Assembly: GCA_964592645.1 (NCBI GenBank)
Contig: CAZQFV010000016.1
Coordinates: forward strand, 2,282 to 66,281
Direction: 5' to 3'
Length of the DNA stretch: 64,000 nt
Source of the DNA: an uncultured Chloroflexia bacterium
GTDB taxonomy: Bacteria; Chloroflexota; Chloroflexia; DTKN01
The position numbers were made by a program, and so were the translations under genes. The notes below the pieces were generated by a model. The model did no database searches and was not told where the DNA came from. It saw only the letters and a program-made list of their open reading frames with translations. Positions within the stretch are counted from its first letter, which is position 1, and every line of letters begins with the position of its first letter. Positions 8,092 to 60,328 of this stretch are shown piece by piece.

Positions 8092-9348
8092 CTACGCCGT
8101 GGCGACGACCGCGGGGACCGGCACCACCGCAGTAGCCACCGGGGCGACCGCGGCGGCCGGCCCGGCGGAGGGCACGGCGACCGCGCTCACGGCCGGCTGC
8201 TCCTCCACCACCGGCATCACCACAGCCAGCCAGCCGTCCTTGGCCCCCCGGATGGTCACCGGGCGGTTCACGACGGCCGGCCCACCGTTGCCGTTGCCCT
8301 GGCAGAGCAGCTCCACGGTGATCTCGCCGCTCGCGCCGGCCAGGGCCTCCCAGAGATAGCGGGCGTTCAAGCCCACAACCGCCCCCGGTCCCTGGTGCCG
8401 GACCGGGATGACCCCCTGGCCCTCGGCGTAGGCGCTGGAGCCGGCCTGCACGGTCACCTCGCCATTGTCGAGGGAGAGCCGCACCGGGTGGTGCGGCCGG
8501 TCCTCCTCGGCAAAGGGGGCCATGACTTTGAGCACGCGGCGCAGCTCCTCGGCGTTCACGGTGATCTGGACGTTGCTCTCCTTGGGGATGACCTGCTCGT
8601 AATCGGGGTAGCGCACCCCCCCGAGCAGGGTGATGGCCAGGTCCACCGACCCGGTCTGGAAGAGGGCCAGGTTGTACTGGCCGTCAGCGGCCGGCACTAG
8701 CACCAGGACCACCGTTTCATCCTCGCCACCCAGCACGTGGGCCAGCAGCTCCATGCCCCGCGCCGGGATGATCGCCTGCACGGCCTCTTCGAGCAGGTAC
8801 TCGACGGCGAGGTCCTGCACGGCCAGGCGGAAGCCGTCGGCCGCGGCCAACACGGCCTTGTTGCCGTCCAGTCGCAGGTACACGCCGGTCATCGCCGGGC
8901 GCGAACCGTCGCGGTCAGCTGCGGCGTACGCCACGCGGCCGATGGCCTTGCGCAGCAGCGCGGCGTTCACCCGGGCGACCACGTCGCCGTCCATCTCCGG
9001 GAGCGTCACCGGGTGCGCCGCGCCCTTGAGCGTGGCGCGGTGGCCGGCTGCCCGCAAGACCAGCTTGTCCTTTTCATCCAGCTCCAGCTTGATCTCTTGC
9101 GTGGGTTCCATCGCCCGGACGAAATCGCCCAGGAGATCGGCGCGCACGGTCACGGCCATCCCCACCTCGGACTCGTCGGCGGTGCAGGGCACGCGGGCGA
9201 CCACGGAGACGGTATAGTCCGTGGCCCGCAGGGTCAGCGTGCCGCTGCCGGCCTCGAGGTTCACCAGGAGCGCTTCACCCCGGACGGCCGGGTGCAGCCC
9301 GTTCAGGGCCGCGAGCCCTTCGGCCAGGTTCTTCTGTAACGCTTTCAT
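8092..9348 (-). CDS. dnaN: DNA polymerase III beta sliding-clamp-like protein with an Ala/Pro/Val-rich C-terminal tail
   Basis: ATG at 9348 follows AGGAGG. The length and pattern are DnaN-like (LTLRATDYTVS, MTGVYLRLDGNKAVLAAADGFRLA, YPDYEQVIP, LNARYL). The last ~45 aa are low-complexity A/P/V. Confidence 0.8.
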   Translation of the reverse strand: MKALQKNLAEGLAALNGLHPAVRGEALLVNLEAGSGTLTLRATDYTVSVVARVPCTADESEVGMAVTVRADLLGDFVRAMEPTQEIKLELDEKDKLVLRAAGHRATLKGAAHPVTLPEMDGDVVARVNAALLRKAIGRVAYAAADRDGSRPAMTGVYLRLDGNKAVLAAADGFRLAVQDLAVEYLLEEAVQAIIPARGMELLAHVLGGEDETVVLVLVPAADGQYNLALFQTGSVDLAITLLGGVRYPDYEQVIPKESNVQITVNAEELRRVLKVMAPFAEEDRPHHPVRLSLDNGEVTVQAGSSAYAEGQGVIPVRHQGPGAVVGLNARYLWEALAGASGEITVELLCQGNGNGGPAVVNRPVTIRGAKDGWLAVVMPVVEEQPAVSAVAVPSAGPAAAVAPVATAVVPVPAVVATA

Positions 9349-9370
9349 CGTGGTCCTCCTCGTTTGCGTT

Positions 9371-10120
9371 CTAGGCCCAGTTGTTGGGCAAGCCTCTTTC
9401 CCGCATCGAAACGAACGTGTTCCGGCCAATCACGAGGTGATCGACCAGCTCTACGGAGAGCATCTTGCCGACCGCGATCAGATCGCGAGTTATGGCCAGA
9501 TCTTCGGGCGAAGGCTCCGGACTGCCCGACGGGTGCGAATGGGCCAGGACGATGGCCGGGCAGTTGTCCCGTACCGCCTCGCGGTAGACCTCGGCCGGCC
9601 GCACCAGGGCGGTGTTCACGGAGCCCTGGTAGATAAGCACCTGGCGCAGTACCTGGTGTCGCGTGTTCAGGAGCAGGACGCGCAGCTGCTCCTGGTCCAG
9701 ATCGCCCATCTCCGGCAGCAGCAGCGCGGCCGCGTCGGCGGGCGACCGAATGGTGAGGCCCTCGACGGCGCTCTCCCGGACCGTGCGCCGGCCCATGTCG
9801 AGCGCCGCCTGGAGGACAACGGCCCGTTCCGGGCAGATGCCCGCACGGGCGATCTCGGCGAGGCTGGCCCGACGGAGGCCGCGCAGTCCGCCAAAAGCGG
9901 AGAGCAGCCGGCCGGCCTGGGCCAGGGCCACCTCGGGCTTGCCGCCGAGCACGAGCGCCAGGCACTCGCTGCTCGACAGCGCCGTTACCCCCAGGTCGCA
10001 CAGCCGCCGGGCCGGGACCTCGCCGGCGGGAAGCGGGTAACGCGGGACCGCTTCCGCCAGGTGGGGCTCGGCGCCGGCCGCCGGGAACCCGGGCAACTCC
10101 AGTTGCTTTAGCCGCTGCAT
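9371..10120 (-). CDS. radC: RadC-family JAB/MPN-domain protein
   Basis: ATG at 10120. The JAMM motif HSHPSGSPEPSPED and an N-terminal HhH-like region are present. The track's upstream extension was discarded. Confidence 0.85.
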   Translation of the reverse strand: MQRLKQLELPGFPAAGAEPHLAEAVPRYPLPAGEVPARRLCDLGVTALSSSECLALVLGGKPEVALAQAGRLLSAFGGLRGLRRASLAEIARAGICPERAVVLQAALDMGRRTVRESAVEGLTIRSPADAAALLLPEMGDLDQEQLRVLLLNTRHQVLRQVLIYQGSVNTALVRPAEVYREAVRDNCPAIVLAHSHPSGSPEPSPEDLAITRDLIAVGKMLSVELVDHLVIGRNTFVSMRERGLPNNWA

Positions 10121-11091
10121 CGTTTCACCCCCAGGCACAGCCCCAGCGCGCGGGCAAAGCGACAGCCAAAGGCGTAGCGGGCGTTGTGATACACGCAGCG
10201 CACCACCTTTTCGGCTTCGCGCACCCGGTCGCGCGGCGGGCTGCGAAACAGCGCGGCGGGGACCCCCTGAAACCAGTCTCCGGCCAGCAGCACGGCCTGC
10301 TCCTCCGGCATCCCGGCGGAGCGCATCCAGGAAGCGAGAAACAGCAGCACACGGTTGCTCTTGCCCAGGCCCTGCCAGTAGGCCCGCAACAGGCGCGCCA
10401 CGCACGGCGGCGCATAGCCGCCGCGGATGGCCACCGGGGCAGGATCCACCACGGAGGCCTGGCTTTGCCGCTGAGTTCGCAGGTAGCCGCGCAGCGTCTC
10501 GGCCGCAGCCGGAACCAGCTCTGGCTTGGGATACGGGAGCGGGGGGCGGGGCCGGCCGGCCAGCCGGCGCAGGTAGGCGGGGCCGCGCAGCAGCTCGCCG
10601 GGCGCCACCTCCACCTTGTAGCGGCCGGTTTGCGCGTGCCGGCTGCCCACCTGCCGCCACATGCGGCGGCAGGAGTACACACTCCGGTCGAGCGTGTCGA
10701 GTTCGAGCCGTTCGGCCAGCGCCCGGGCCCAGCGCCCGTAGGCGTAGGTCAGGTCGGGGGAGGGGGCGGTCACCCCCAGCGCTTCCTCCGCGACCTCGAC
10801 GTGCAGGCCCCGGTTGCCGGTGTAGTAGAGCCGCGTGGCCTCCGGCGGCAGGTCCAGGAAATCGGCCAGGTAGCCGACCAGCACGCGGACCTCGCCGATG
10901 ATCCGGCCCAGGTCGTCGCCGTCGAAATCAAAGTAGAGCGGGGCCAGGTGAGCCTCGCCGTCCTGGTGGCGGTCCAAAGGGAACCGCTGCACCGTCACGA
11001 AACTCTCCCCGCCGCGGTCAGGCGGCGGGATGCGGGCCTCGGGGAAGCGCCGCCACTGCTTCAGCCCGGGCTTCCACCAGTCACGGTACAT
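10108..11091 (-). CDS. archaeo-eukaryotic primase (AEP/PrimPol-like) with a PriCT-like C-terminus
   Basis: ATG at 11091 follows AAGGAGG. AEP motifs are YFDFDGDD (DxD), TGNRGLHVEV (sGxGxH) and DRSVYSCRRMWRQVGSRH. Confidence 0.7.
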   Translation of the reverse strand: MYRDWWKPGLKQWRRFPEARIPPPDRGGESFVTVQRFPLDRHQDGEAHLAPLYFDFDGDDLGRIIGEVRVLVGYLADFLDLPPEATRLYYTGNRGLHVEVAEEALGVTAPSPDLTYAYGRWARALAERLELDTLDRSVYSCRRMWRQVGSRHAQTGRYKVEVAPGELLRGPAYLRRLAGRPRPPLPYPKPELVPAAAETLRGYLRTQRQSQASVVDPAPVAIRGGYAPPCVARLLRAYWQGLGKSNRVLLFLASWMRSAGMPEEQAVLLAGDWFQGVPAALFRSPPRDRVREAEKVVRCVYHNARYAFGCRFARALGLCLGVKRCSG

Positions 11092-11344
11092 GGCTACCTC
11101 CTTTCTCTCCCCATGGGAGAGCGAGCTGCATCGTGGCCGGGGCAGCGTCACCGTGCTCCGCGCGCCACCTTTGCAAGATTTCCTGTCCCATTTCGGCCAC
11201 ATTGTCCGCCGCCTGCTGCGCCCCGACGCCGTGGTTGACCCCACCGCAGATGCACTTACAGACGGGTCCATGGGCCTCGTGGCAGCGGGCATCACAGCGG
11301 CCGACGCAGCCTTCCGACGTATGCACCGACAGCACCGTAGTCAT
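11081..11344 (-). CDS. small cysteine-rich protein (CDARCHEAHGPVCKCICGGVNHG motif)
   Basis: ATG at 11344 follows GGGAGG. It overlaps the primase start by 11 nt. I recall this Cys motif from small conserved proteins of actinophages and plasmids. Confidence 0.6.
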   Translation of the reverse strand: MTTVLSVHTSEGCVGRCDARCHEAHGPVCKCICGGVNHGVGAQQAADNVAEMGQEILQRWRAEHGDAAPATMQLALPWGEKGGSHVP

Positions 11345-11413
11345 CGAACACCTCCCATCCGCCGTGGGGAGCAGGATGCGTGCCCTGCCCCCCACGGGCG
11401 GGGTTCTCGGGGC

Positions 11414-11524
11414 TCACGCCGGCGGAGCGAATTCCTTGGCCGGCAGAGCCCAATCGGACCAGAAGCGGATCGCCGCCTCATCCTTGGCCTTTTGCGCTTC
11501 GGGGGAGAGCGCGCCCCAGCTCAC
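11414..11524 (-). CDS. possible 36-aa ORF (MSWGALSPEAQKAKDEAAIRFWSDWALPAKEFAPPA), below the track size cut-off
   Basis: GTG at 11524 overlaps the TGA of the upstream gene (GTGA) and lies 6 nt after GGGAGG. The composition looks protein-like rather than shadow-ORF-like. Confidence 0.35.
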   Translation of the reverse strand: MSWGALSPEAQKAKDEAAIRFWSDWALPAKEFAPPA

Positions 11525-12117
11525 GGGGCACCTCCCGCCGCCAACTGCTGCGCCCAGGCCAGCCGCTCGGGCGTGTAGCGGGCGTACCACAGCCGCTGCC
11601 GGACGCTCCAGCGAAAGCCGCGCTCCTTCAGCGCCGCGCGCACCTCTTCCGAGGGCTTGCTGCCGAACGTCACCTCGACGCCGTTCAACGCCTCGTTGCG
11701 GCGCACGGTGGTGGCCGCGCCGCCCTCCGGCGGGCTGCCGGCCGCGACCGCCTCCGCCTCCTCCGGCCAGGGCGGGGTATCCCCCTCCCAGGCGGCCGGG
11801 GCGAAATGGACGATGTACCAGGTGCTCCGCGGCCGGCCGGAGTGGTCCGGCGCCAGCGACGGCAAGGGCGCCTTGATGTAGTAGCCGCGGCCCATGCTCC
11901 ACTTTTCGCGGTGCTCCTCCCAGGGGAGGTTGCGCAGCGTTGGGAAGCGGCGGGCGGTGGCCAGGAGCAGGGAGATCAGGTCGCGCTGCTCGTCCGTGGG
12001 GGCGAGGATCCAGCGGCCCAACTCCTGCCGGCCAAAGTAGTCGGTCTGCGGGTCGCTGTCGTCGCGCTCCTTGGCGATGACGATGACCCGTTCCTGGTGG
12101 ACCTTGTCGGCGCGCAT
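11521..12117 (-). CDS. hypothetical protein; C-terminal NGVEVTFGSKPSEEVRAALKERGFRWSVRQRLWYA module
   Basis: ATG at 12117 follows AAAAGGAGGA. I recall seeing the C-terminal motif in polyvalent proteins of plasmids and phages; this is not verified. Confidence 0.6.
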   Translation of the reverse strand: MRADKVHQERVIVIAKERDDSDPQTDYFGRQELGRWILAPTDEQRDLISLLLATARRFPTLRNLPWEEHREKWSMGRGYYIKAPLPSLAPDHSGRPRSTWYIVHFAPAAWEGDTPPWPEEAEAVAAGSPPEGGAATTVRRNEALNGVEVTFGSKPSEEVRAALKERGFRWSVRQRLWYARYTPERLAWAQQLAAGGAP

Positions 12118-12217
12118 CGATTCCTCCTTTTGTCAACTGGGGCGGAAGGCGGCCGGCGGGACGATCGTTCATCCCGCCGGCACGCGCCCGCCATGCACGA
12201 TACCACCTCGCCTGGTG

Positions 12218-12643
12218 CTACTCGGGAGCAACCTCCTGGAACAGCGCTTCAGGCAGCCACGCCGTCTCCAGGCTGATGCTCGTGTTCTTCACGTACACTT
12301 TCCAGACCACGTCGCTCGCGGTCACGATCATGCGCATGGACTCGACCTCGACGACCTGGTCCGGGGCTACCTCCAGCGGCGCGTCCAGGACGACGAACTC
12401 GTGCTCGTCCACCTGCTCGGCCAGGGCCTCGTCCAGGGCGGCGCGCCCGACAAAGATGGGCCGCGTGTCCCAGTAGGCCAGGCTGTGCAGGGCGGGATCG
12501 GCCGCCCGCAGCGCTTGGGCCAGCGCGATGCGCTCCCGCACCTCCTGGGCCATCTCCGGTGTCAGCCGGACGAGGGCAAAGGAGGCCTCGTAGTAGTCGT
12601 CGTCCGAGAGCCACAGCTTCATAACCACCGTTTTCTCGCTCAT
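12218..12643 (-). CDS. hypothetical protein
   Basis: ATG at 12643 follows GAGAGGAGA. The composition is acidic and coding-like. Confidence 0.6.
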   Translation of the reverse strand: MSEKTVVMKLWLSDDDYYEASFALVRLTPEMAQEVRERIALAQALRAADPALHSLAYWDTRPIFVGRAALDEALAEQVDEHEFVVLDAPLEVAPDQVVEVESMRMIVTASDVVWKVYVKNTSISLETAWLPEALFQEVAPE

Positions 12644-12654
12644 GGGTTCTCCTC

Positions 12655-12834
12655 TCAACGGGGCTCGTAGCAGGCCGCGCCTGCGGCCCGCTCGGCCCGC
12701 TGCTCCTGGTAGGACCACCATTCACACTTGGGGCAATGGCCGCACCACGGGCAGCACGGCGCGCCGCAGACGGCGCAGCGGTGCGTCCATGGGTAGAGCC
12801 GCCCGCAGCGGGTGCACTCGATCATCTCTTGCAT
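12655..12834 (-). CDS. 59-aa zinc-ribbon protein missing from the ORF track (MQEMIECTRCGRLYPWTHRCAVCGAPCCPWCGHCPKCEWW...)
   Basis: Translated by hand. ATG at 12834 lies 3 nt after the helicase stop, and the TGA is at 12655-12657. It has nine Cys arranged as CxxC pairs. Confidence 0.55.
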   Translation of the reverse strand: MQEMIECTRCGRLYPWTHRCAVCGAPCCPWCGHCPKCEWWSYQEQRAERAAGAACYEPR

Positions 12835-12837
12835 CGT

Positions 12838-15800
12838 TCACCTTCTCCGGCGCGGCCGGTTTCCCCGGGCTTCCACCCAGGTAAAGGCGGCCTCGCTCGC
12901 GGTGTCGCCGAACAGCCCAAAGAAGGCGAGTTGCCCCACTCCCTCGGGCGGCGCGGGCACGACGATGGTCACCGCCGGCGCGGGCGCCTGTTCGGGCGCG
13001 GCCGGCGGCACCGTTTCCTCGGTCCAGACGGCGACCGAACCGTCGGTGGACATGGCCGCCAGCCACTCGGTGGCCTGGTTGGCCTGTTCGAACAGCTCGC
13101 TCAGGTCGGCGATGGGCGCCCCCTTGAGGATATCCTGGGCCAGCTCGTGCAGCAGGCTGCGGCCGGCCCCGGCCTGCTCGGCCAGGGCCGCGGCCGCCTC
13201 GTCCCCATAGACCAGGGAGGCCGCGGCGACCTTGCGCCCGATGTGCGAGATGGCGCGGTGCTCCATCGTCCCGCGGTAGGCGACCCAGTGGACCCGCACC
13301 GGCCGGGTCTGTCCCAGCCGCCAGGACCGCCGCGCCGCCTGCATCAGGGTGTAGAGCGAGTACTCGATCTCGTAGAAGATGATGGTGGGAAACTCGACCA
13401 GGTCCAGGCCGACCTCGACCAGCTTGGGGTTGCAGATGAGCGCGTCGCAGCGCGCGGCCTCGCGGTGGACCCACTCCTCGCGGCGCGACGAGTCGATGGA
13501 CTGGCGCAGCACGCGGACGCGCAGGCCGGCGTCCTCCAGGATGCGGGCCACGCGCGGTTGGATATCGCGGGTCGCCGTCTGCCGCAGGTAGACCAGCACC
13601 TTGCGGCCCTGGCGCGCCTCGGCCACGCAAGCGTCGCGGAGCCAGGCCTCCTTGGGGTAGAGAACGTCCTCGGGCAGGGCGTGGGCGACGTAGACGACCT
13701 TGCCTTTCGGGTCGGTCGCCGGGTCGTCCCGCCAGCACGAGTTCGGCCGGCCCAGGGTAGCCTGTAGCCATTCGGAGAGCATGCCCGGGTTCTGCATGAA
13801 CTCGGCCTTGAGCACCGCGTCCAGGGCAGAGTAATCCCGCGCCTGGACCGGGTCCATGTCGAGGAGGTGTGGGAGCTCGGTGTAGGGGGGCAACTGATAC
13901 CCCAGGTCCTGGAGCCGCATAAAGAGAGCGTCGCTGAGCAGGAAGGGGATCAGCGCCGGCGAGATGCCCGGGATTTCCTTGGTCCGCCGGCTGACCCGCC
14001 GGTTGGCCGTGAAGCGCCCGGAGCCGCGCGTCTCCTGCTCGATCGTGGTCTGCTGGACGCCATAGTTCTCGACCCAGCGTTTCTCGTCGCGCCAGGCGTA
14101 GCGCCGGCGCACCCGTGGGCTGATGCGGTGCCAGAGGTAGAACAGCGACGACGCCGTCCCGCCAAAGATCGTGCCGGTGAGGCAGACCGTGTGCCGGGCC
14201 GCCCGCACCAGGTCGCCAAAGGCGTAGCCTTGGTCGGTGCTCTGGGCCTTGGCCTGGTGGACCTCGTCGGCGATGAAGAGGTCCACGCGGCCGCGATAGC
14301 GCCGGGCCAGGAAATCGGCGATGGGCCAGCGCGGGTTGCCGTTGTCCTTCTCGAAGCGCCGACTGAACTGCCACAGCGCCCCGCCGCAGGCGAAACAGCG
14401 GCGCAGTTGCTGTTGCATGTAGTCGGGGTTGCGGATGGGGACGCCGTTGGCGTCCTCGACTTCGGCCCCGCAGTGGGGGCAGCGATAGCTCTCGCGGGGG
14501 ATCGCCCGGCCGCGCCGTTGGCCGGCGGACATGCCCTCCGGCCGCTGGCGGTGCTCGGCCAGGCGCTGGCGGATCCGCTCGGCCCGTTTCCCGGCCTCCC
14601 GGGGCGTGATCTCCTGCCACGCGCCGGCGTTCGGCCCGGAGGGGACCCAGACCTTCTTGCCGTCGCGGGGCAGGTTGGGGATGCTCCCCGCGGCCGCCCA
14701 ACGCACGGTATGGGCCGGCTCCCAGCCGGGGCCGAGCTTGGCCATCTCCTTGGAGACGACGGCCAGGTACGGCACGCCGGGCGAGGCCAGGGCCTGGCGG
14801 ACGAAGCGCGCCATCTGGGCGGACGAGGTCACGACCGCCGCCTGTACCCCCGGCCACACCTCCTCGGCCTCGCGTTTCCACTTGGCCGTGAGATGGGTAG
14901 GGCAGGTGATGACGACCAGGAAGGGGACCGGCCGGCCGGCGCGGGCCTGTTTGCGGGCGCACATCCCGGCGCCCACGGCCAGCGCCGCGGTCGTTTTGCC
15001 AACCCCCATTTCGCCCACCAGGACCGCCGCGCGGTCGCCCCGATGGAACTTTTCCAGAATGGCCGCCGCCGCGTGCGCCTGGGCCGGGAACAGGCCCGAC
15101 TCCTTGCGCCCGGGCAACGGCCGGTTGGGGGAAAGCCCGCAGAAGACCTGGCCCAGGTCCTCGGGGACCCGGAAGCCGTACAGCGGCTTGAACCGCGCCT
15201 GCACTTCCTGGGCCAACGGCTCGGCCCACTCCTCGAAAAAGGGGCGGAGTTTCCCCTCGCCCTCGAGGATGGTAATCTCGCCGCTGCCGGTGTCCAGCGT
15301 GCAGATGCGGCTGACCAGTCGCTCCGTCTCGGTGATCCGGCGGCCCTTGTCGGTCTTTTCCTCGACACGGTCCACCGCGCGAACGGTGCGGCCCTTGACC
15401 AGGATCTCGCGGCCGTCCCGCCGCAGTAGGATGTTGTTGGCCAGCCCCGCGCCTAGGAACATCGCCAGGTGGCCCATACGCAGCGGAAAGAGCGGCTGCA
15501 CCTCTTGCTCGATCGGCACCGGCGGCGCCGTGATCTCGGGAAAGTCCTGCGGCACCCGGCCGGCGATCTCTGCGATATCTGCCGGGTCGGGGACGCCGGG
15601 GTAAAAGTGGAACTTGACCCGGGCCGGCGCGGGCAGCGTGTACGGATCGACGCCGTCCTGCTCGCCCAGCGTCGGCAGCGCCTCGGGGATTTCCCAAGGG
15701 TCCAGCGTCGCCCGCCGCGCCCGCTGCACGCCGAGCACGACCACCTGTTTGAACCGGGCGTACTCGGCAGCGGGGAAGCGGAAGCAGACCAGTCGGTCAT

Positions 15801-16263
15801 ACCAGGCCGGCAGGTACTTCCGGACGTCATCGCGCCGGACGGTGGCCTCGGGCACGATCCAGACCAGCAGCCCGCCGGGCTGCAGCCAGCCCTTAGCATT
15901 GCAGGTACGCAGAAAGGTCACCTCCATGCGCCGGCGGTCCCCGTCATAGTCGTAGGGCGGGTTCAGCCAGAGCAGTTGAAAGGCGTTGATCGCCGTATGC
16001 AGGTCGGTGTAGCTGCCCTGCACGGCCCGCAAGACGCGCGGCCGGGCCGCGCGGGCCCGGTTGGTGTCCAGTTCGACGCCGTAGGTGTTGGGGCAGCCCA
16101 GCAGCTGCCCCAGTTGCGCCAGCGCCAGGCCCTCGCCGAGGCAAGGGTCGAGCAGGCGCGTTTCGGCGGGGAGCGGCACGTAGATGTACCGGGCGAGCAG
16201 CTCCACCACCGCTGCCGGGGTCGGAAAGTACTCCATGTTGATCTGGGCGTTGGGTCTAGCCAT
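12838..16263 (-). CDS. fusion of an N6-adenine-type DNA methyltransferase (NPPY) and an SNF2/DEAD-like helicase
   Basis: ATG at 16263 follows GAGGAGGAGGA. The MTase motif is WLNPPYDYD. Helicase motifs are GEMGVGKT (I), FIADEVHQAK (II) and QAARRSWRLGQTRPV (VI). Confidence 0.85.
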   Translation of the reverse strand: MARPNAQINMEYFPTPAAVVELLARYIYVPLPAETRLLDPCLGEGLALAQLGQLLGCPNTYGVELDTNRARAARPRVLRAVQGSYTDLHTAINAFQLLWLNPPYDYDGDRRRMEVTFLRTCNAKGWLQPGGLLVWIVPEATVRRDDVRKYLPAWYDRLVCFRFPAAEYARFKQVVVLGVQRARRATLDPWEIPEALPTLGEQDGVDPYTLPAPARVKFHFYPGVPDPADIAEIAGRVPQDFPEITAPPVPIEQEVQPLFPLRMGHLAMFLGAGLANNILLRRDGREILVKGRTVRAVDRVEEKTDKGRRITETERLVSRICTLDTGSGEITILEGEGKLRPFFEEWAEPLAQEVQARFKPLYGFRVPEDLGQVFCGLSPNRPLPGRKESGLFPAQAHAAAAILEKFHRGDRAAVLVGEMGVGKTTAALAVGAGMCARKQARAGRPVPFLVVITCPTHLTAKWKREAEEVWPGVQAAVVTSSAQMARFVRQALASPGVPYLAVVSKEMAKLGPGWEPAHTVRWAAAGSIPNLPRDGKKVWVPSGPNAGAWQEITPREAGKRAERIRQRLAEHRQRPEGMSAGQRRGRAIPRESYRCPHCGAEVEDANGVPIRNPDYMQQQLRRCFACGGALWQFSRRFEKDNGNPRWPIADFLARRYRGRVDLFIADEVHQAKAQSTDQGYAFGDLVRAARHTVCLTGTIFGGTASSLFYLWHRISPRVRRRYAWRDEKRWVENYGVQQTTIEQETRGSGRFTANRRVSRRTKEIPGISPALIPFLLSDALFMRLQDLGYQLPPYTELPHLLDMDPVQARDYSALDAVLKAEFMQNPGMLSEWLQATLGRPNSCWRDDPATDPKGKVVYVAHALPEDVLYPKEAWLRDACVAEARQGRKVLVYLRQTATRDIQPRVARILEDAGLRVRVLRQSIDSSRREEWVHREAARCDALICNPKLVEVGLDLVEFPTIIFYEIEYSLYTLMQAARRSWRLGQTRPVRVHWVAYRGTMEHRAISHIGRKVAAASLVYGDEAAAALAEQAGAGRSLLHELAQDILKGAPIADLSELFEQANQATEWLAAMSTDGSVAVWTEETVPPAAPEQAPAPAVTIVVPAPPEGVGQLAFFGLFGDTASEAAFTWVEARGNRPRRRR

Positions 16264-16957
16264 CGCCGTCCTCCTCCTCGTCGTCGCCATTGCGGACAAT
16301 CTGGCGCACGACCTCGTCCCAGCGGGGTTCGCCGGTCTCGACCACCCAGGCGGCCGCGCCAAAGCTGTTGGCCACCTTGACCATGGGACTCCACCGCGGC
16401 TGCTCGCAGCCGGCTCGCCACAACCGCTCCGCCCAGGTGGGCAGGAGCGGGGTGAGCATGGCGTGGTCCAGCCAGGCGAAGAAGCGCGCCAGGATTTCGG
16501 CCCGTGGCAGCTCCGGCGGCACCTCGCGCTGCCCGTTGGGTTGGTCCTTGATCGGCACCGGCGACCCGGTGGGGTCCACCAGGTAGACGTGCTTCATCTT
16601 TTCCAGAAGATCCACCGGATCGGCCCAGAGGGCCAGGGTGTAGAGGCCCTTTTCCTGGTCGCCCAGGATACGGCCCTGGTATTCCACGCCGCCGAGTTTC
16701 GCGACGCTGTAAACGTCAGGGACGTGCGGGGTGTAGCCGTAGGCCGAGTACGTGGGGTAGTCCCGCCGGACTGCCTGCACCTGCCCCCGCTCGGGGACCT
16801 CGATGCTGCGACCGGCGGCGACCGCCATGCGCAGGGCCTTGAGTGCCGTCAGGTGCCCAACCACCACCAGGTGATATAGGTGCCGCTGGTGATGGGAAAC
16901 GGCCACCAGCCGCGCCGAGACGCCCCCGTAGGTCACCACGGGGAACCGGTCTTCCAC
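16256..16957 (-). CDS. hypothetical protein
   Basis: GTG at 16957 follows AGGAGG. The acidic C-terminus is DDEEEDGDG. It overlaps the next gene by 8 nt. Confidence 0.55.
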   Translation of the reverse strand: MEDRFPVVTYGGVSARLVAVSHHQRHLYHLVVVGHLTALKALRMAVAAGRSIEVPERGQVQAVRRDYPTYSAYGYTPHVPDVYSVAKLGGVEYQGRILGDQEKGLYTLALWADPVDLLEKMKHVYLVDPTGSPVPIKDQPNGQREVPPELPRAEILARFFAWLDHAMLTPLLPTWAERLWRAGCEQPRWSPMVKVANSFGAAAWVVETGEPRWDEVVRQIVRNGDDEEEDGDG

Positions 16958-17042
16958 GATACACCTCCTGACAGAAAAAAGGGCTAGGATGTGTCGCACC
17001 CGAGGCCCTGGGGCCAGAAAATAGATTGGTAACGATGTCATG

Positions 17043-17330
17043 TCACGAGAAAACCGCCCAGGCCTCCCGTAGATGGCGAGCCCGCTCCGAGAGCATCCGG
17101 GCCAGGTCCGCGATCATCGCTCGGGTGGGCAGGCCTCGGTCCAACAGGCTCTCGTCCGGCTCGCCCGCGGCGATGCGTTGGCGGGCCTCTTGCACGCGAG
17201 CCGCCAGGCCGGCGGGATCGGCGATGCCGTCGCACAGCCGTGGCAGGTCGCGTTGGGAAAGGTAGATGGAGCCGGACCCCGCGGGCGCGGGGATGCGGGC
17301 ACCACCGGTCGAGTACAGTTTCTTGTTCAT
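17043..17330 (-). CDS. hypothetical protein
   Basis: ATG at 17330 follows GGGAGG. Confidence 0.5.
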   Translation of the reverse strand: MNKKLYSTGGARIPAPAGSGSIYLSQRDLPRLCDGIADPAGLAARVQEARQRIAAGEPDESLLDRGLPTRAMIADLARMLSERARHLREAWAVFS

Positions 17331-17352
17331 CGTCTCTGCCTCCCAGAAATGG

Positions 17353-17402
17353 GGGGCGGACGCACACGTCCCCGCCCGGGGGCGGAGTCGCGCGTCCGCC
17401 CC
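17353..17402 (-). terminator. hairpin downstream of ssb (weak terminator candidate)
   Basis: GGGGCGGACGC / GCGTCCGCCCC arms are followed by CCATTTCT on the minus strand. Confidence 0.35.
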
Positions 17403-17492
17403 AGGCGGATTCCTGCCGGCAGCAGCGTGGGGACGGCCTGAATGGAGACAGGTCACTCTCCTGGCGTTGCGTCCGGTGTCACAGTGGTGCGC

Positions 17493-18433: not shown

Positions 18434-18436
18434 CGC

Positions 18437-46156: not shown

Positions 46157-46173
46157 ATCGCGGTTTGGCGCCG

Positions 46174-52627: not shown

Positions 52628-53203
52628 TTATTCGTCGCCTCGTTTCCACACGGCCGGCAGGAAAGCGGCAAACAGCACGGCGCCGCTGCCGCCCTGTTCC
52701 GTCTCGCTGCCGGCCAGCGCGTCCTGCAGCCGCTCCAGTTCGGTGCGGATCCAGGCGAGCTTGCCCAGAAGTTCCGCCTTGGTTTCGGTGGCGGGCAGGG
52801 CCAGCAGCCGTTCTTCCAGGGTCATCGCTTCGCCCAAGGCCACCAGCACGTCGTTCAGGTGGGCGACGTGCCCGGCCAGGGCCGGCGGGGCGCTCATTTC
52901 CTGCAGCCGGCGGGCGATCCGCGTCAGGTCGGCGTCCACCGCTTCCAGGCGGCTGTTGGCCTCGACCAGCGTGGCCGGGGGCGAGACAGCCATGTCCTCC
53001 ATCTGTCGGTTGAGATCCAGGAGCGTCTCCACGTGGCCGCGCAGCTCCCCTGCCACTCGCTGCACCTGCCAGCCCGGGTAAGTGAGTACCTGGCTCCCAC
53101 CGGTGAGCCAGTAGCCGAGCGCACCGAGGCCGAGCAGGAGCAGGACAACCACCAGGGCCAACAGGCCCCACCTACTGGATCGCGAGCGCATAGACCTCGA
53201 CAT
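52628..53203 (-). CDS. membrane-anchored coiled-coil protein
   Basis: It has an N-terminal TM helix (WGLLALVVVLLLLGLGALGYWL). The start may be 53203 or 53191. It overlaps the upstream gene's 3' end. Confidence 0.5.
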   Translation of the reverse strand: MSRSMRSRSSRWGLLALVVVLLLLGLGALGYWLTGGSQVLTYPGWQVQRVAGELRGHVETLLDLNRQMEDMAVSPPATLVEANSRLEAVDADLTRIARRLQEMSAPPALAGHVAHLNDVLVALGEAMTLEERLLALPATETKAELLGKLAWIRTELERLQDALAGSETEQGGSGAVLFAAFLPAVWKRGDE

Positions 53204-53828
53204 TGTTCATTCCCCCGCGGCGCGAACGTAGCGCCCCGATGACCACGACCGGCGTTCCCACGACCAGGCGGGCGGATTCCTGGCGGACCGAGTTGCCCCA
53301 CCGGCAGACCTTGAAGTAGTTGGGCTGCGCGCACTTGGTCCAGGGCGGCATGGACACGGCGATCAGGAAGGTCATCCGCAGATGCCCATCCGCGGTCACC
53401 CGGAGCTGCGGCTCCTTGGCTACTGCCCCCAGCAGGCAGACGTGGTTCAAGCGGCGGATCGGGCCGGCGCCGGGATCCAGGGCCGGCAGCCGCCGCAGGT
53501 CGTCGGCCCGCCAGATGCCCTGCGCCTGCACCCAGATATTCACCGCTTGGCCATCGCTGGTCCGCTGCGAGCGGAGCGCCCCCGTCACCAGCACGGTGGC
53601 GCTCTCGGCCAGGGCCGGCCGGATGTCTACGGCCAGGTTGCCCTCCTTGACGATCGTCAGGAGGTTGTCCTGCGTGCCCGGGATTCCCGTGGGCGTCGGC
53701 ACGCGCACCGCCACGTTCAGGCGGAACGGCTTCTTCTCCAACCGCAGCCGCGGCTCCGATTCGACCACGCCCAGCAAGGCTACCTGGTTCAGGACCGCGT
53801 TGCTCATCAGCGCGTCTGCCGTTCTCAT
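53172..53828 (-). CDS. tandem SSB-like OB-fold protein
   Basis: ATG at 53828 overlaps the peptidase stop (ATGA). It has two halves, each starting LNxVxLLGxV..EPxLR. The second half ends VVVIGALRSRR...VEVYALAI. Confidence 0.5.
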   Translation of the reverse strand: MRTADALMSNAVLNQVALLGVVESEPRLRLEKKPFRLNVAVRVPTPTGIPGTQDNLLTIVKEGNLAVDIRPALAESATVLVTGALRSQRTSDGQAVNIWVQAQGIWRADDLRRLPALDPGAGPIRRLNHVCLLGAVAKEPQLRVTADGHLRMTFLIAVSMPPWTKCAQPNYFKVCRWGNSVRQESARLVVGTPVVVIGALRSRRGGMNNVEVYALAIQ

Positions 53829-54238
53829 CGCTGCACCAACCCCACACTCCACACGACCAAGGTCGCCCCGGCGATGAACGGCACCACCGGCACGGCCTGC
53901 CGTCGTCGCACTTTGCCGTATAGCCCGGCCGTGAGCGAGGCCAGGGCCACCACGTACACCGCCGCCCCGCCTAGCGCCAGGCCAACCAGCCCGTAGACCT
54001 GGGCATCCCCCAACCCGGCCCGTTCTTCCCCCCAGATAGCCGTGGGTATGGCCATCAGCCCGCCGACGACAGCCCCGGCCACGATGGGCCACCACTCACC
54101 CCGGACCACGCGGAACGTCAGGCTGCCCAGGAGGGCCGGCCAGATCAGGACGGCCGGGACAACCTGCCAGCGCGCGTCGCACACGGCGATGGCCAGCAGT
54201 ACTGCCCCAACAGCGCCCAGGAAGATCACCTCGGCCAC
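53825..54238 (-). CDS. A24-family prepilin peptidase (CpaA/TadV-like)
   Basis: The two Asp motifs are AVCDARWQVVP and GLGDAQVY. The start is uncertain: GTG at 54238 follows GAGAGG, and ATG at 54256 is an alternative. Confidence 0.6.
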   Translation of the reverse strand: MAEVIFLGAVGAVLLAIAVCDARWQVVPAVLIWPALLGSLTFRVVRGEWWPIVAGAVVGGLMAIPTAIWGEERAGLGDAQVYGLVGLALGGAAVYVVALASLTAGLYGKVRRRQAVPVVPFIAGATLVVWSVGLVQR

Positions 54239-54242
54239 CCGT

Positions 54243-55538
54243 CTACCTCTCGGCATCCACGAACCGGGCCGGCTGTTCCTCAAAGCGCAGCGGCGCGACG
54301 CCCGGCGGCCCGTTGCGGTTCTTGACCACGCAGGCCTCGGCTTCGTAGCCTCGGCCCTCGCGGAGCGCCCGGTGCAGCAGGATCACCGTGTCGGCGTCCT
54401 GCTCCAGTTCCGGCACTTCTTCGCCCAGGTCGGCCAGGAGCGGCGCGCTGTCGGCGCGATGCTCTACCAGCCGCGAGATCTGGGAAGTCACTACTACCGG
54501 CACCATCAGTTGCATCGCCAGGTCCTTCAACCCGCGCGAGTTCTCGGTCCGGTCGCCGCGGATGCGCTGGAAACCGTCCACGATGACCAGCCGCACCCCC
54601 CGCAGCGTCACCAGCCGCCGGGCCTGGCCGGCCAGCCCCGGCAGTGTCACCCGCGGCGCGCCGTCCACGATGAGCGGCGCGCCCGTCAGCGTCCCGCGGG
54701 CTTGTTCCAGCCATGTCAGCTCGTCGCGCACGCACCCGGCCATCAGCGTGGTGAGAGGGATGCCGGAGGCCACTGCCAGCAGCCGCTTCGCCAGTTGCGC
54801 GGTCGTCGTCTCGCCGGTGAACAGGAGCACCGGCTCCTTTTGGCGCACCGCCAGAAAGTGGGCCATGCCGGCCACAAAAGAGGTCTTGCCCACGGCCGGC
54901 CGGCCGCCGACCACGACCAGGTCCCCGCGTTGCATGGAAACCAGGCGGTCCACGCCGGCGTACCCGGTGCCCAGCCCTTGTGGCCGCACCCGCCCGGTGA
55001 CCTCGGCCAGCACTGCTTCCAGGATGCCCTCCAGGGAACGGGCGGTATCCGGGATGTGCGTCACCGAGAGCTGCCGGACCAGTTCCTCCGCCGCAAAGAT
55101 GACCTGCTCCGGCGCGGTCCCCGCGCGCGGGTCCTGCCGGCCGAGGGCGGCGACCTGCTGGCCGGCGGCGATACAGTCCCGCAGTACGGCGCAGAGCCGC
55201 ACGACCCGCGCCCGCTCCAGCAGGCGGTCTTGCACCACCTCGCCGCCAGCGGCCAGGGCCAGCGCCGCCAGCTTCTCGCGCCCCCCGACGGTTTCCAGGT
55301 GTCCCTGCCGGTCCAGCTCCTCGGCCACCGTCGCCGCGTCGGTCAGCCCCAGCCGCTCGTAGCAGGCCAGGACCGCCTCGTAGATGCGCCGGTGGCCCGG
55401 GACAAAGAACATGGCGGGATGGGCCAGTATTTCGGACACGGCCGCGACCACCCCCCACGCACTTCCCGTAGGGGAAAGGATCGCGGCCAGCACGTCGGAC
55501 TCGGCCTGGGCATCGTGGGGCAATGTCGGTTCGGTCAT
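54243..55538 (-). CDS. dnaB: replicative DNA helicase (DnaB family)
   Basis: ATG at 55538 follows GAGGAGG. The N-terminus PHDAQAESDVLAAIL is DnaB-like. Walker A is VVGGRPAVGKTS. Also IVDGFQRI. Confidence 0.85.
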   Translation of the reverse strand: MTEPTLPHDAQAESDVLAAILSPTGSAWGVVAAVSEILAHPAMFFVPGHRRIYEAVLACYERLGLTDAATVAEELDRQGHLETVGGREKLAALALAAGGEVVQDRLLERARVVRLCAVLRDCIAAGQQVAALGRQDPRAGTAPEQVIFAAEELVRQLSVTHIPDTARSLEGILEAVLAEVTGRVRPQGLGTGYAGVDRLVSMQRGDLVVVGGRPAVGKTSFVAGMAHFLAVRQKEPVLLFTGETTTAQLAKRLLAVASGIPLTTLMAGCVRDELTWLEQARGTLTGAPLIVDGAPRVTLPGLAGQARRLVTLRGVRLVIVDGFQRIRGDRTENSRGLKDLAMQLMVPVVVTSQISRLVEHRADSAPLLADLGEEVPELEQDADTVILLHRALREGRGYEAEACVVKNRNGPPGVAPLRFEEQPARFVDAER

Positions 55539-56577: not shown

Positions 56578-57816
56578 CTACCCCCGGTCACCCGGCCGGG
56601 ACAGGAGCTGCTCCACCCGCGCCCGCGCTTCCTGCGCGGCCCGCTCGACCTCGTCCAGCGTTCCCTTGAGCACCGCCAGGGCCGCGGCCGGGAGGCTGGT
56701 CAAATCCCGCCGGCGGACCAGGCCGACGATGGCCAGGGCGGTCCCGTGCCAGCGCTGCTGGCGGGCCGCGACCCACTTGGGATAGGGCATTGGCGCGAGC
56801 GCAGCCTGGTGCAGTTGGACCAGGGACCGGGTGACGAGGGCGGCGACCTCGGCCTCGCCCAGCGGCTGGACTTCGCCGGCCGGCGTCGTGCGGCCGCGGG
56901 CCACCCGCCGGGTCAGTTCGACCAAGGCCTCCGGCGCCAGGTCGCCGGCCGCCCGGACCAGGGGCCGCAGCGCCCACTCGGACAGGCCGGCCCGCGCCGC
57001 GATCTCTTGCGCTTCCTGGGGCAGTTGCAGCAGCGCCGTCAGCCGCTGGCGGTAGCGTTCCCCGACCTGGCAGCGGGACTCCACCGCGGCCCAGGGCACC
57101 TCGGCGCCGGCCTGCTCTTGCAGCACTTCCTTGAGTCGTCGCAGCCCCCAGGCCCGCTCCACCGCCGACAGCTCGGCCCGGTGGACGTTCTCCACCAACT
57201 GCTGCGCCACCCGCCCGGCGTCGGGGGCCGGCCCAACCAGCGCCTCGATTTCCTCCAGACCCACCAACTCCGCCGCCATGCGCCGGCGGTGCCCCACCAG
57301 GATGATGTACTGGCCGGGATGCTGGGGATCCTCGTAGACGCGGATGGGCTGCAACTGCCCGACGCCGGCCGGCGCGGGCTGCATGGAACGCCCCAGCGCT
57401 TCCAGGTCGGCCAGTATCCGGGCCGCGTGGGGCTCGCCGGCGGCTGCTGCCTGCTGCAACTGGGCGATTGGAGGCAAGAAACGGGGCTGCGCTGGGTCGG
57501 GGTGAACGGTAGCGAGCGGCAGGCGCACCACGCCCTGGCCCAATCGGGCCAGGAGCGCATCGCGTTCGCTACGGTAGCGTTCGGCTGCTTCTTGCGCCTC
57601 CCGCAGCGTTTCGCCATCGCCGGTGGCCAGGGCGGCCTCCAGTTCGGTGACACGGGCCTGCAGCCGTGCCAACGCGGCCGCGCCGTCCGGGTCCGGTGCG
57701 CCGCGCAGGTCGCGCAGCCAGTCCAACCCGGTGTCAAAGACCTCGGCGCCGGCCCGGTCGGGCCGGATACGTTTCTGTCCCTCGCGCCGGGCCGCCTGCC
57801 GCCGGTCATCCGGCAT
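56578..57816 (-). CDS. parB: ParB/Srx-domain partition protein
   Basis: ATG at 57816 follows GGGAGG. The ParB box is IRVYEDPQHPGQYIILVGHRRRMAA. Confidence 0.8.
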   Translation of the reverse strand: MPDDRRQAARREGQKRIRPDRAGAEVFDTGLDWLRDLRGAPDPDGAAALARLQARVTELEAALATGDGETLREAQEAAERYRSERDALLARLGQGVVRLPLATVHPDPAQPRFLPPIAQLQQAAAAGEPHAARILADLEALGRSMQPAPAGVGQLQPIRVYEDPQHPGQYIILVGHRRRMAAELVGLEEIEALVGPAPDAGRVAQQLVENVHRAELSAVERAWGLRRLKEVLQEQAGAEVPWAAVESRCQVGERYRQRLTALLQLPQEAQEIAARAGLSEWALRPLVRAAGDLAPEALVELTRRVARGRTTPAGEVQPLGEAEVAALVTRSLVQLHQAALAPMPYPKWVAARQQRWHGTALAIVGLVRRRDLTSLPAAALAVLKGTLDEVERAAQEARARVEQLLSRPGDRG

Positions 57817-58654
57817 GGTCGCCTCCCGCTTGCGCCGCCAGCCGTTCCAGGACTTCCCGCCCCAGTTGCTGAAAGGCCACGGCCCCGGGGGAGTTGGCCC
57901 GGTACGCGCCCACCGGCATCCCCGCCATTGTCGCGTCCGAGATCGTGGTGTTGGCTGGAATCGTCGTGCGCAGCGGCCAGCCGTACGGGCCGTAAGCGCG
58001 CACCGCTTCGGCCATCACTTCGCGGCTCTGGTGGGTACGCGGGTCCACCTTGTTGAAGAACAGGCCCAGCACGCGCAGCCGGGGGTTGACCCGCAGGCGG
58101 ACGATCTGGGCGATGGTCTGCAAGAGCAGGGTCATGCCAAAGAGGGCCAGGTGCTGCGCTTCCAGGGGCACGAGCACGTACGTGGAGGCGGTCAGCGCCG
58201 CGACGGTCAGGTTGCCCAGCGAGGGCAGGCAGTCCAGGAGGACCAGGTCGTACTCCTCCTGCACGCCCTCCAGCAGGTACCCCAGCAGTTTCTCTCGGCC
58301 CATCGCCGTGGGCAGTACCTGTTCCGCTTCGGAGAGGTCGAGCGTTGAGGGCAGCAGGTCGTAGGCCGCGCCGTTCCACTCCCGCCGGAGGAGGATATCC
58401 CGCGCCTCGGGCGCGCCGTCACGCATCTCGATGAAGCGGCCCTTGAGGCAGGCCCAGATCGTGCGGTTCCCCTGCGGGGAGAGGAGCGACTGCGGGGCGA
58501 TCCCCGAGGCCAACGTGGCATTGCCCTGGGAATCCAGGTCCACGAGCAGCACGCGCCGGCCCATCCCGGCCAGGACGTAGGCCAGGTTGACCGCGCTGAC
58601 CGTCTTGCCGGTGCCCCCCTTTTGCATGGCCAGGCTGATCACCGTCGCGGTCAC
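57806..58654 (-). CDS. parA: ParA-family partition ATPase
   Basis: Deviant Walker A MQKGGTGKTVSAVNLA. Also LLVDLDSQGNAT. Confidence 0.9.
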   Translation of the reverse strand: MTATVISLAMQKGGTGKTVSAVNLAYVLAGMGRRVLLVDLDSQGNATLASGIAPQSLLSPQGNRTIWACLKGRFIEMRDGAPEARDILLRREWNGAAYDLLPSTLDLSEAEQVLPTAMGREKLLGYLLEGVQEEYDLVLLDCLPSLGNLTVAALTASTYVLVPLEAQHLALFGMTLLLQTIAQIVRLRVNPRLRVLGLFFNKVDPRTHQSREVMAEAVRAYGPYGWPLRTTIPANTTISDATMAGMPVGAYRANSPGAVAFQQLGREVLERLAAQAGGDHAG

Positions 58655-59480: not shown

Positions 59481-59481
59481 T

Positions 59482-59510: not shown

Positions 59511-59592
59511 TCCTGTAGCAAGTTGCGCAAGACAAACAGGTCCCATCGTTGGGGCCTGTCGCGGACAATGCACAGTCTTGGAGAAGCGATAC

Positions 59593-60162
59593 CTATGGGA
59601 ACAAGGCCCTGCCGCGCCTCCCTGCCAGCTTCGCGAGGACCGCCGCGAAGACTACGTCTGATTCGTCCAGGAACGTCTGGTATCCGTTGTTGCCCAGGAC
59701 ACGGATATGGCCTTTCTGGGCCCATCTCGATAGAGATGGGGATCGAAGTCCATACTTGCGTGAGGCCTCCCGTACAGAGATCTCTCGACCCTGCAAGTTT
59801 CTCCATTTGCCACGGTCGAGTTCTCGGGCAGCCTCAAGCAATTCCTCTTTGTCCACTAGTTCCTCAGAGGAGTCCGGCGGCGTCTTGGAGGCGATGATCC
59901 CATCCTTGACCAATTTGCGCAAGACGCTCTCATCGATCTCCGGAAAGAGGGCAATCGCCTCTGCCAGGGGGATCCAGCGGCCGTTCCCATTTCCGTTATG
60001 CGCCTGTCCTGCCACCATGGCCACGTCCTCATCCGGGATCAGATCTTGACCTTCAAGGTGCACCGTCCTGATTTTACCATCCCGGATGAGCGTCTGCAAC
60101 ATGGCCCGCGGCAGGCGGTAGCGCTGCGATGCTTCTGCGATGCTCAGCAGCGTGAGCGGCAC
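59593..60162 (-). CDS. protein with three tandem excisionase/MerR-type HTH modules
   Basis: GTG at 60162 lies 5 nt after AGGAGG. The three modules are LSIAEASQRYRLPRAMLQTLIRDGKIRTV, WIPLAEAIALFPEIDESVLRKLVKDGII and ISVREASRKYGLRSPSLSRWAQKGHIRV. G+C is visibly lower here. Confidence 0.6.
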   Translation of the reverse strand: MPLTLLSIAEASQRYRLPRAMLQTLIRDGKIRTVHLEGQDLIPDEDVAMVAGQAHNGNGNGRWIPLAEAIALFPEIDESVLRKLVKDGIIASKTPPDSSEELVDKEELLEAARELDRGKWRNLQGREISVREASRKYGLRSPSLSRWAQKGHIRVLGNNGYQTFLDESDVVFAAVLAKLAGRRGRALFP

Positions 60163-60255
60163 CTGGACCTCCTGGCGTTCCTTGCCGTTCCGGAAATACA
60201 GCGGCCAACCCGGTGGCCGGGTTGGCACGCATTCCGGCCCTATGCCGGGGCAAGA

Positions 60256-60328
60256 AGCGGGAGACGGGACTCGAACCCGCGACAGCCTGCTTGGGAAGCA
60301 GGAACTCTACCGACTGAGTTACTCCCGC
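60256..60328 (-). tRNA. tRNA-Gly (anticodon CCC)
   Basis: I folded the cloverleaf by hand. Acceptor GCGGGAG/CTCCCGC, D arm ACTC/GAGT, anticodon stem CCTGC/GCAGG with loop TTCCCAA, T arm GCGGG-TTCGAGT-CCCGT, discriminator T. CCA is not encoded. Confidence 0.95.

Follow-up and report, generated by a model that had tools for sequence, protein, structure and literature searches.

The DNA analysed here (the window) is a stretch of 64,000 nt from an uncultured Chloroflexia bacterium, corresponding to positions 2282-66281 of contig C16 in the draft genome GCA_964592645.1 (G000; 3.6 Mb in 41 contigs, 68% G+C). It is dominated by a near-continuous run of about 50 minus-strand genes (8092-60228; called by third-position G+C) that lies beside the single tRNA gene of the window, a tRNA-Gly(CCC) whose 3' end faces the block. 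An initial annotation, made from the letters alone, had read this block as an integrated element resembling a plasmid or an integrative and conjugative element (ICE), with one transcriptional polarity and four modules. The gene calls agree with the former, as only four plus-strand genes were found (22528-23154, 25239-25562, 25995-26411 and 26860-27552), all at 22.5-27.6 kb. Profile searches, with Pfam on the roughly 50 called genes (a few small open reading frames (ORFs) were left out) and with NCBIfam and PHROGs on the unknowns, supplemented by a PDB sequence search, are in accord with the four modules: establishment at 8.1-20.3 kb, cargo at 20.4-27.6 kb, pilus and ATPase at 27.6-45.9 kb, and replication and partition at 48-59.4 kb (Table 1). 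The G+C content of the block is 68.0%, against 62.4% in the cargo islet.

The first gene inside the block encodes a 189-residue protein with, as the initial annotation proposed, three excisionase-type helix-turn-helix (HTH) motifs. Its G+C content (59.3%) is lower than that of the block (68.0%), and its likely GTG start at 60162, which is supported by the ATG with which the homologue in G001, the only other genome of the genus, begins, places it 93 nt from the tRNA. In other genomes homologues of this protein are encoded by the first gene after tRNA-Leu, -Pro, -Lys, -Cys and -Asn (the last twice), and the protein is a candidate directionality factor or regulator. Towards the other side, the tRNA-Gly(CCC) gene, its upstream region, a DUF218 gene and the next gene are syntenic in G001, with protein identities of 68-82%. 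Judged by this synteny, the right border is chromosomal DNA. The spacer that follows the tRNA (60229-60255) is also partly conserved in G001, where the DNA downstream of the same tRNA again carries an HTH-family gene, separated from it by a 60-nt tRNA-Pro 3' fragment, before the contig stops (G001:C9:1-420; L156). The fragment may be a relic of an element that changed its target tRNA, or of stacked insertions. The presence of an HTH-family gene 3' of the same tRNA in both genomes therefore marks tRNA-Gly(CCC) as a hotspot for such elements in the genus.

Consistent with the initial inspection by eye, an exact search of contig C16 revealed no further copy of the tRNA 3' end of at least 15 nt. 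When C16 and the whole genome were searched in exact, mismatch-tolerant and gapped modes, the only returns were an intact second attachment (att) core on contig C19 and a weak match at window positions 8049-8067. The C19 copy (C19:69612-69965) repeats window positions 59949-60302, a stretch made up of roughly 200 nt from the start of the HTH gene, the 27-nt spacer and, at the tRNA end, exactly its last 47 nt; the copy lacks the 5' half of the tRNA, although ARAGORN miscalls the fragment as a 79-nt tRNA-Gly. The last 260 bp or so of the repeat are almost identical (about 97% by eye), and identity breaks off within the anticodon stem, a limit that delineates the core. A tyrosine recombinase crossing over in the anticodon loop would leave such a sharp end. 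The far side of the C19 core carries an AbiEi/AbiEii pair, another Xer-like tyrosine recombinase (approximately 2 kb beyond the core and 35% identical to that of the window), a type IIG enzyme and then chromosomal-looking genes, psuG and ABC-transporter genes being reached within 8 kb to the right of the core. The near side is occupied by a different plasmid-like element that encodes an HTH homologue (65% identical), SSB, ParA and an FtsK-like protein. The orphan att region with its recombinase side (C19:69612-73269; L016:9613-13270) thus has the order recombinase, core, HTH gene, and looks like an attP site or the junction of a tandem array. A tandem join of C16 and C19 was examined; the orientations do not fit a simple join, and the psuG orthologue of G001 also lies at a contig start. 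Logan contigs from this strain stop within the tRNA without exception, which is uninformative because such breaks are expected from a repeat at k=31. In the search for an empty site, the DUF218 gene was not beside a tRNA in G006 and G008, the neighbours of tRNA-Gly(CCC) differed in other genera, and in G001 the right flank is kept but the contig ends 345 nt past the tRNA. A separate exact 45-nt repeat of the tRNA-Cys(GCA) 3' end was observed at C31:34728-34772 and C9:149597-149668, both near contig ends, and is probably the att repeat of a different island.

Of 401 sampled genomes in the phylum, only 8 contain homologues of the C-terminal domain of the large ATPase in the block, a sporadic distribution. 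Three of the eight display the same gene order (HTH, ParA, DnaB, p44175, p42941, ATPase, CpaB/E/F, TadB/C and TadE) over 40-50 kb, starting directly 3' of a tRNA, which is Leu(GAG) in the complete genome G080, Pro(CGG) in G397 and Lys(CTT) in G267; in G436 a tRNA-Lys is followed by ParA and the same backbone. A nuclease with a winged-helix-turn-helix (wHTH) domain also belongs to the backbone of the syntenic elements, and a tyrosine recombinase lies further on in G397 and G267, while none was found in the stretch fetched from G080. Anaerolineae genomes contain up to three copies, including a tandem pair 53 kb apart in G434, in which SSB, RadC and methylase-SNF2 genes come after the Tad pilus module, in the same orientation, before the next copy begins. 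Relatives of the ATPase were identified in 175 stretches of a species-representative genome collection, nearly all from Chloroflexota and almost all metagenome-assembled genomes, the two closest being labelled 'Chloroflexia bacterium'; a scan of metagenome contigs returned no relative above 35% identity. The gene order around the ATPase is kept in about 60 loci. Three Caldilineaceae chromosomes contain only the ATPase-Tad module of approximately 11 kb, with no ParA, DnaB, HTH or recombinase gene within the 40-50 kb or so fetched on either side. The diversity of tRNAs fits site-specific integrating elements with diversified target specificity and the family is Chloroflexota-wide, functionally uncharacterised and, to judge from gene content and distribution, mobile. 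No description of it was found in the literature searched.

No relaxase of the MOB families was detected in the block by Pfam, NCBIfam or PHROGs, as the initial annotation had it. VirB4 and coupling proteins likewise went undetected in the block, the only large P-loop ATPase being HerA/DUF87-like. CpaF is the pilus ATPase, and the match of Pfam FtsK_SpoIIIE to it is weak and sub-threshold only; a TraB with an FtsK/SpoIIIE domain was not found in the block, the FtsK-like gene lying on C19 instead. Among the genes scanned, the three libraries revealed no terminase, portal, capsid, tail or lysis family. Thus neither a relaxase nor the phage structural module that might have reclassified the block came to light in these libraries, and a prophage reading was rejected, as the genes scanned included no structural genes.

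The ATPase scores 743.8 bits against NF033849 (ser_rich_anae_1; cut-off 650) over residues 78-1337, displays weak matches to CedD and HerA in NCBIfam, and has HerA proteins as its closest sequences in the PDB. The adjacent Tad/Flp (type IVc) pilus set, which matches the Pfam families RcpC, AAA_31, T2SSE, T2SSF, TadE and Tad, comprises CpaF, a TadB/TadC platform, CpaB, a CpaE-like protein, an A24 peptidase and TadE pseudopilins. The Flp pilin is represented only by a 68-residue candidate (32459-32665) that has no Pfam match. A secretin is absent from the Tad-locus genes of the block, as we would expect if the host is single-membraned. The gap upstream of the pilus operon (46068-46706), some 850 nt in length, displays no convincing coding signal and a low third-position G+C.

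The wHTH-nuclease and the 191-residue protein encoded next to it form a pair whose genes neighbour the ATPase-Tad module at many loci of Anaerolineae, in the genomes G080, G397 and G267, and also on the Alkaliphilus plasmid pB6464. A word-based protein search recovered only three relatives of the nuclease, and the family was assembled from fetched loci; in the resulting alignment (A3) H312, D353, E367, E369 and K389-W390 are invariant. The AlphaFold model (predicted local distance difference test (pLDDT) score 83) consists of a long coiled coil, a winged helix and a PD-(D/E)XK domain. Foldseek returned no match to the model at E ≤ 0.001; the best was VRR-NUC (probability 0.98, E = 0.018), followed by MarR/PadR folds. 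Replic_Relax was absent among the 25 listed of the 101 families matched at E up to 1 by 17 members of the nuclease family. The nuclease is a candidate DNA-processing enzyme that could take the place of the absent relaxase. In the replication module the 635-residue protein matched no family in Pfam, PHROGs or NCBIfam and, because no library offered a match, we infer its function, that of a putative replication initiator, from a reading of its sequence. The calls for the DnaB, A24 peptidase and SSB-like genes agree on Logan contigs.

At the distal end of the block, a small minus-strand ORF (11081-11395) is 47% identical to a 96-residue ORF beside ParA in the G080 element (G080 region 27652-27942); on this similarity it belongs to the family as a small gene connecting the left module with the backbone. 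The occurrence of SSB, RadC and methylase-SNF2 genes after the Tad module in G434 argues that the 8-20-kb module is part of the family repertoire. The initial annotation had suggested a convergent terminator at 8046-8077 as the left border. A G+C-rich inverted repeat is indeed present there between convergent genes, but a simple terminator scan made no call. The hairpin holds GGGAGACGGG and CGCACCCGC, which together match the T-arm and acceptor of the tRNA at 19 of 22 positions, with a 3-nt gap and in direct orientation. The local alignment score of this segment (8049-8067) ranks in the top 0.36% of 80-nt windows of C16, and the degenerate tRNA-like match is suggestive of a decayed att site. 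Both this match and the distal gene set of G434 favour an end of the element near 8046, where we place the probable left border; no long repeat marks it, in line with the initial caveat. The left flank (1-8045) is a defence island encoding a BrxC fragment, PglZ, BrxL and three candidate defence proteins; at 62% G+C it is foreign too, which keeps alive the earlier caveat that the BREX-side genes could belong to the same island. Contig C16 starts in the end of an insertion sequence (IS) shared with the starts of contigs C10 and C3 (C16:1-54, 2.3 kb left of the window), and this IS cuts a BrxC gene (C16:41-1972). A truncated copy of the same IS lies beside a truncated serine recombinase at C19:66602-66764.

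The only recombinase of the block, in the mixed-polarity islet, retains by inspection the R-K-H-R-H-Y residues, scores 170-179 bits against Xer-like NCBIfam models (below their equivalog cut-offs) and shares 39% identity with the recombinase at the distal end of the G267 element; it is a candidate integrase. It is intact and, as described initially, lies within the islet approximately 35 kb from the tRNA, but its position is not the oddity it was taken for: in relatives the recombinase is found at the distal end or directly after ParA, and the internal location is thus a family trait. No att-like sequence was found between 19.5 and 27.7 kb. The islet also contains repeated DNA. A hairpin of approximately 190 nt (22186-22373) has copies at C4:125411-125599 (88% identity) and C5:10-165, and thus behaves as a MITE-like repeat rather than a locus-specific RNA; the DUF433 gene and an upstream remnant (23352-23985) share 84% identity with C6:147028-147660, where the same toxin-antitoxin cassette occurs a second time; and a 150-nt direct repeat (25453-25601 and 26532-26681; 87% identity) flanks the PIN gene.

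Table 1. Features of the block and its borders (window coordinates).
Feature	Position	Strand	Basis or setting
Candidate decayed distal att site, G+C-rich hairpin	8046-8091	-	Sequence, local alignment
Distal module, including unknowns	8092-20347	-	Pfam; PHROGs primase
DnaN	8092-9429	-	Pfam
RadC	C-terminal part of 9371-10660	-	Pfam
Primase-like protein	10108-11295	-	PHROGs primase
DUF6094 methylase fused to SNF2 helicase	12838-16362	-	Pfam
SSB	17493-17888	-	Pfam
Mixed-polarity islet, G+C 62.4%	20380-27552	mixed	Pfam, PADLOC, NCBIfam
AbiEii	21341-22084		Islet
DUF433	23557-23970		Islet
Xer-like tyrosine recombinase, intact	24077-24985		Islet; Pfam Phage_integrase and SAM-like domains
PIN	25995-26411	+	Islet
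DUF4258-like protein	within 20380-27552		Islet
PKD-repeat surface protein (993 aa) and Pro/Thr-rich membrane protein (316 aa), end of pilus operon	27568-31513	-	Pfam PKD (six), PPC
Tad/Flp genes: CpaB, CpaE-like, CpaF, TadB, TadC, small pilin-like ORFs, two TadE	31532-38946	-	Pfam
p45420, secreted p44175, p43770, membrane protein p42941, ATPase	38891-45947	-	Gene order, profiles
'Serine-rich' HerA-like ATPase, 1345 aa	38891-42928	-	NCBIfam NF033849, Pfam DUF87
Rep-like protein, 635 aa, start MPHGEE, N-terminal wHTH-like region, zinc ribbon	47962-49869	-	Sequence reading; Logan gene call of 635 aa
Coiled-coil-wHTH-PD-(D/E)XK nuclease, 449 aa	51266-52615	-	Alignment, AlphaFold, Foldseek
Membrane/coiled-coil protein, 191 aa	52628-53203	-	Conserved pair with nuclease
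SSB-like protein	53172-54095	-	Pfam SSB
A24 prepilin peptidase	53825-54283	-	Pfam Peptidase_A24
DnaB-type helicase	54243-55538	-	Pfam DnaB/DnaB_C
ParB	56578-57816	-	Pfam ParB_N; NCBIfam parB_part
ParA	57806-58654	-	Pfam AAA_31/CbiA
Triple excisionase-type HTH protein, 189 aa, first gene	59593-60162	-	Pfam HTH_17; NCBIfam excisionase domain below cut-off
27-nt spacer with hairpin (tRNA terminator), in repeated att segment	60229-60255	-	Near-identical in C19
att core, tRNA 3' 47 nt	60256-60302	-	Match to C19; identity ends at 60302/60303
tRNA-Gly(CCC), integration target	60256-60328	-	ARAGORN; tRNA and upstream region kept in G001 and family relatives

The conserved chromosomal right flank, the occurrence of the backbone at other tRNAs, its presence in only 8 of 401 genomes and the absence of relaxase, type IV secretion system (T4SS) and phage structural genes uphold the integrated plasmid- or ICE-like element of the initial annotation. 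We propose, with a probability of roughly 0.7, that the block is one integrated copy, at approximately 8046-60302 (about 52 kb), of a plasmid-like mobile element belonging to a Chloroflexota-wide family. The family backbone, in the order triple-HTH gene, ParAB, DnaB/SSB, wHTH-PD-(D/E)XK nuclease, 'serine-rich' HerA-like ATPase, Tad pilus genes and SSB/RadC/methylase-SNF2 genes, is met again beside other tRNAs in distant genomes. In such an element a tyrosine recombinase, either its own Xer-like protein (24077-24985) or a relative acting in trans, would exchange strands in or near the anticodon loop, so that, after integration, 47 nt supplied by the element would restore the tRNA, and the HTH protein at the junction would act as directionality factor or regulator. 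For replication and segregation the excised circle would rely on the Rep-like protein, DnaB, primase, clamp, SSBs and ParAB that it encodes. Cell-to-cell transfer, proceeding without relaxase and T4SS, would have the conserved nuclease cut or process the DNA and a HerA-type hexameric pump push it out, with the Tad pilus serving as contact or conduit, and the SSB/RadC/methylase-helicase module would come into play soon after entry into the new host. A bolder version holds that the family, widespread in Chloroflexota and with relatives on plasmids of Bacillota, transmits itself by a novel form of conjugation, in which a sequence-directed PD-(D/E)XK nuclease stands in for the relaxase, a giant Ser/Thr-rich HerA-type pump for VirB4 and the coupling protein, and the Tad pilus for the T4SS, and in which the att site of the circular form is flanked by the HTH gene and, on the other arm, by the recombinase, as on C19. 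This extension we regard as speculative and, on balance, improbable.

Several observations weigh against the proposed mobile element. The contig yielded no direct repeat at the distal end, the match at 8049-8067 being weak, and among the relatives G080, G267, G397, G435 and G436 no convincing distal repeat was detected, the best being a 13-mer in G080 that lies directly after the last syntenic gene. Because the recombinase is Xer-like and lies after ParA in some relatives, a role in dimer resolution would suit it as well as one in integration. The foreign left flank and the IS at the end of C16 indicate that the island may be longer or composite, and the solitary module of the Caldilineaceae demonstrates that ATPase and Tad genes can exist outside this type of element and may be cargo.

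The last point also speaks for an alternative in which the integrated plasmid cannot transmit itself, the Tad locus and ATPase being cargo for adhesion, colonization or DNA uptake, and spread occurring by other means or vertically. Tad loci are known as horizontally moving adhesion islands, Cutibacterium acnes plasmids carry such loci as adhesins (PMC5696575), and pB6464 is typed non-mobilizable by MOB-suite, all of which accord with cargo. It should be stressed, however, that in two phyla the module is tied to the wHTH-nuclease and to replication and partition genes; that a complete SSB/RadC/methylase-helicase module, of the type that enters first in many plasmids and ICEs, makes little sense without transfer; and that several copies per genome at many tRNA targets imply active spread. 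We are inclined to doubt this alternative. The recombinase in the distal part of the G397 and G267 elements, the polarity break and lower G+C of the islet (20.4-27.6 kb), the tandem copies in G434, the tRNA-Pro fragment between tRNA-Gly and HTH gene in G001 and the orphan att core on C19 could alternatively be explained by a composite island at a tRNA-Gly hotspot. Here a backbone at about 24-60 kb, ending near the recombinase, would adjoin an older 8-20-kb element and a BREX island, and the C19 copy would be a further member of a tandem or rearranged array. This seems unlikely, given that 19.5-27.7 kb contains no att-like sequence, that in G434, too, SSB, RadC and methylase-SNF2 genes come after the Tad module, and that the 8-20-kb region matches the backbone in polarity and G+C content.

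A prophage or phage-plasmid would share with the block the integration at a tRNA, the excisionase-type first gene, and the ParAB and replication genes, some of which match PHROGs primases. The want of any terminase, portal, capsid, tail or lysis family among the genes scanned with three libraries (a phage genome collection was not searched) nevertheless renders it highly improbable. That the block is ordinary, vertically inherited chromosomal DNA placed beside a tRNA by chance is scarcely credible: the backbone G+C content (68%) does equal the genome average, but the distribution is sporadic, the neighbouring tRNA differs in each genome, and the DNA carries plasmid-type functions and has a second att copy.

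To our knowledge, little is known about conjugation and plasmid biology in Chloroflexota. Standard tools type elements of this kind as non-mobilizable and, if they do move themselves, a route consisting of pilus, HerA pump and nuclease is being missed by current classifiers; an NCBI family named only 'serine-rich protein' would then gain a function. If, on the other hand, the block is an immobile integrated plasmid with an adhesion pilus as cargo, it is an ordinary genomic island. As the locus provides a concrete att core and gene set, the question is testable.

Actinomycete integrative and conjugative elements (AICEs) of the pSAM2 type likewise lie in tRNA 3' ends, where a tyrosine recombinase acting with an Xis-type HTH protein inserts them; they replicate after excision and transfer double-strand DNA without a relaxase through a hexameric TraB/FtsK pump; these elements measure 9-24 kb and have no pilus. 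In contrast with AICEs, the Chloroflexia element has no FtsK/SpoIIIE TraB, its ATPase being HerA-like, and whereas int and xis lie together beside att in pSAM2-type elements, the HTH gene and recombinase are here some 35 kb apart. A mobile replicon of approximately 50 kb with a complete Flp/Tad locus in a monoderm-type host recalls the tad plasmids of C. acnes and the 'widespread colonization island'. The C. acnes plasmids p15.1.R1 and pIMPLE-HL096PA1 encode FtsK-domain, VirB4-family and TcpC-like proteins (PMC5696575), and they gave no match to the ATPase in the plasmid search.

Of the systems described, ICETh1 of Thermus thermophilus HB27, associated with TdtA 'transjugation' (PMC5365140, PMC7767461), comes nearest. 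ICETh1 lies in a tRNA 3' end, has 47-bp flanking repeats and a site-specific recombinase, and lacks a relaxase (PMC5365140); its TdtA, a HerA/FtsK-family ATPase encoded beside a nuclease, expels DNA from the donor and is needed to donate it (PMC5365140, PMC7767461). The likeness, judged by gene architecture only, consists of a HerA/FtsK-superfamily ATPase beside a nuclease on a tRNA-integrated, relaxase-free element. ICETh1, however, is a non-replicating element of 14 kb with no pilus genes and a NurA-type nuclease, whereas the present element has about 52 kb, ParAB, DnaB, clamp, primase, a full Tad locus and a nuclease of PD-(D/E)XK fold; TdtA is, moreover, a plain HerA-like protein of approximately 570 residues, in contrast with the 1345-residue ATPase and its Ser/Thr-rich insert. 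Restriction-endonuclease-like relaxases are known, pAD1 TraX being one example that is cited in PMC5365140, and the catalytic fold modelled for the nuclease would be common to it and such PD-(D/E)XK relaxases (MOBC/pAD1 TraX type).

Outside the phylum, the plasmid search matched the ATPase, at 23-24% identity, to megaplasmids of Clostridia, which are free plasmids of 420-436 kb and not integrated at tRNAs. Their records give the protein no function beyond the name 'serine-rich protein'. For the Ruminococcus albus 7 megaplasmid the comparison covered the ATPase. The 436-kb plasmid pB6464 of Alkaliphilus sp. B6464 carries an ATPase-nuclease-Tad module beside dnaE, primase and SSB genes, and its likeness to the Chloroflexia element extends to a nuclease-family protein, the serine-rich ATPase, a CpaE-like protein, CpaF, TadB/C, a Flp pilin, an A24 peptidase and TadE.

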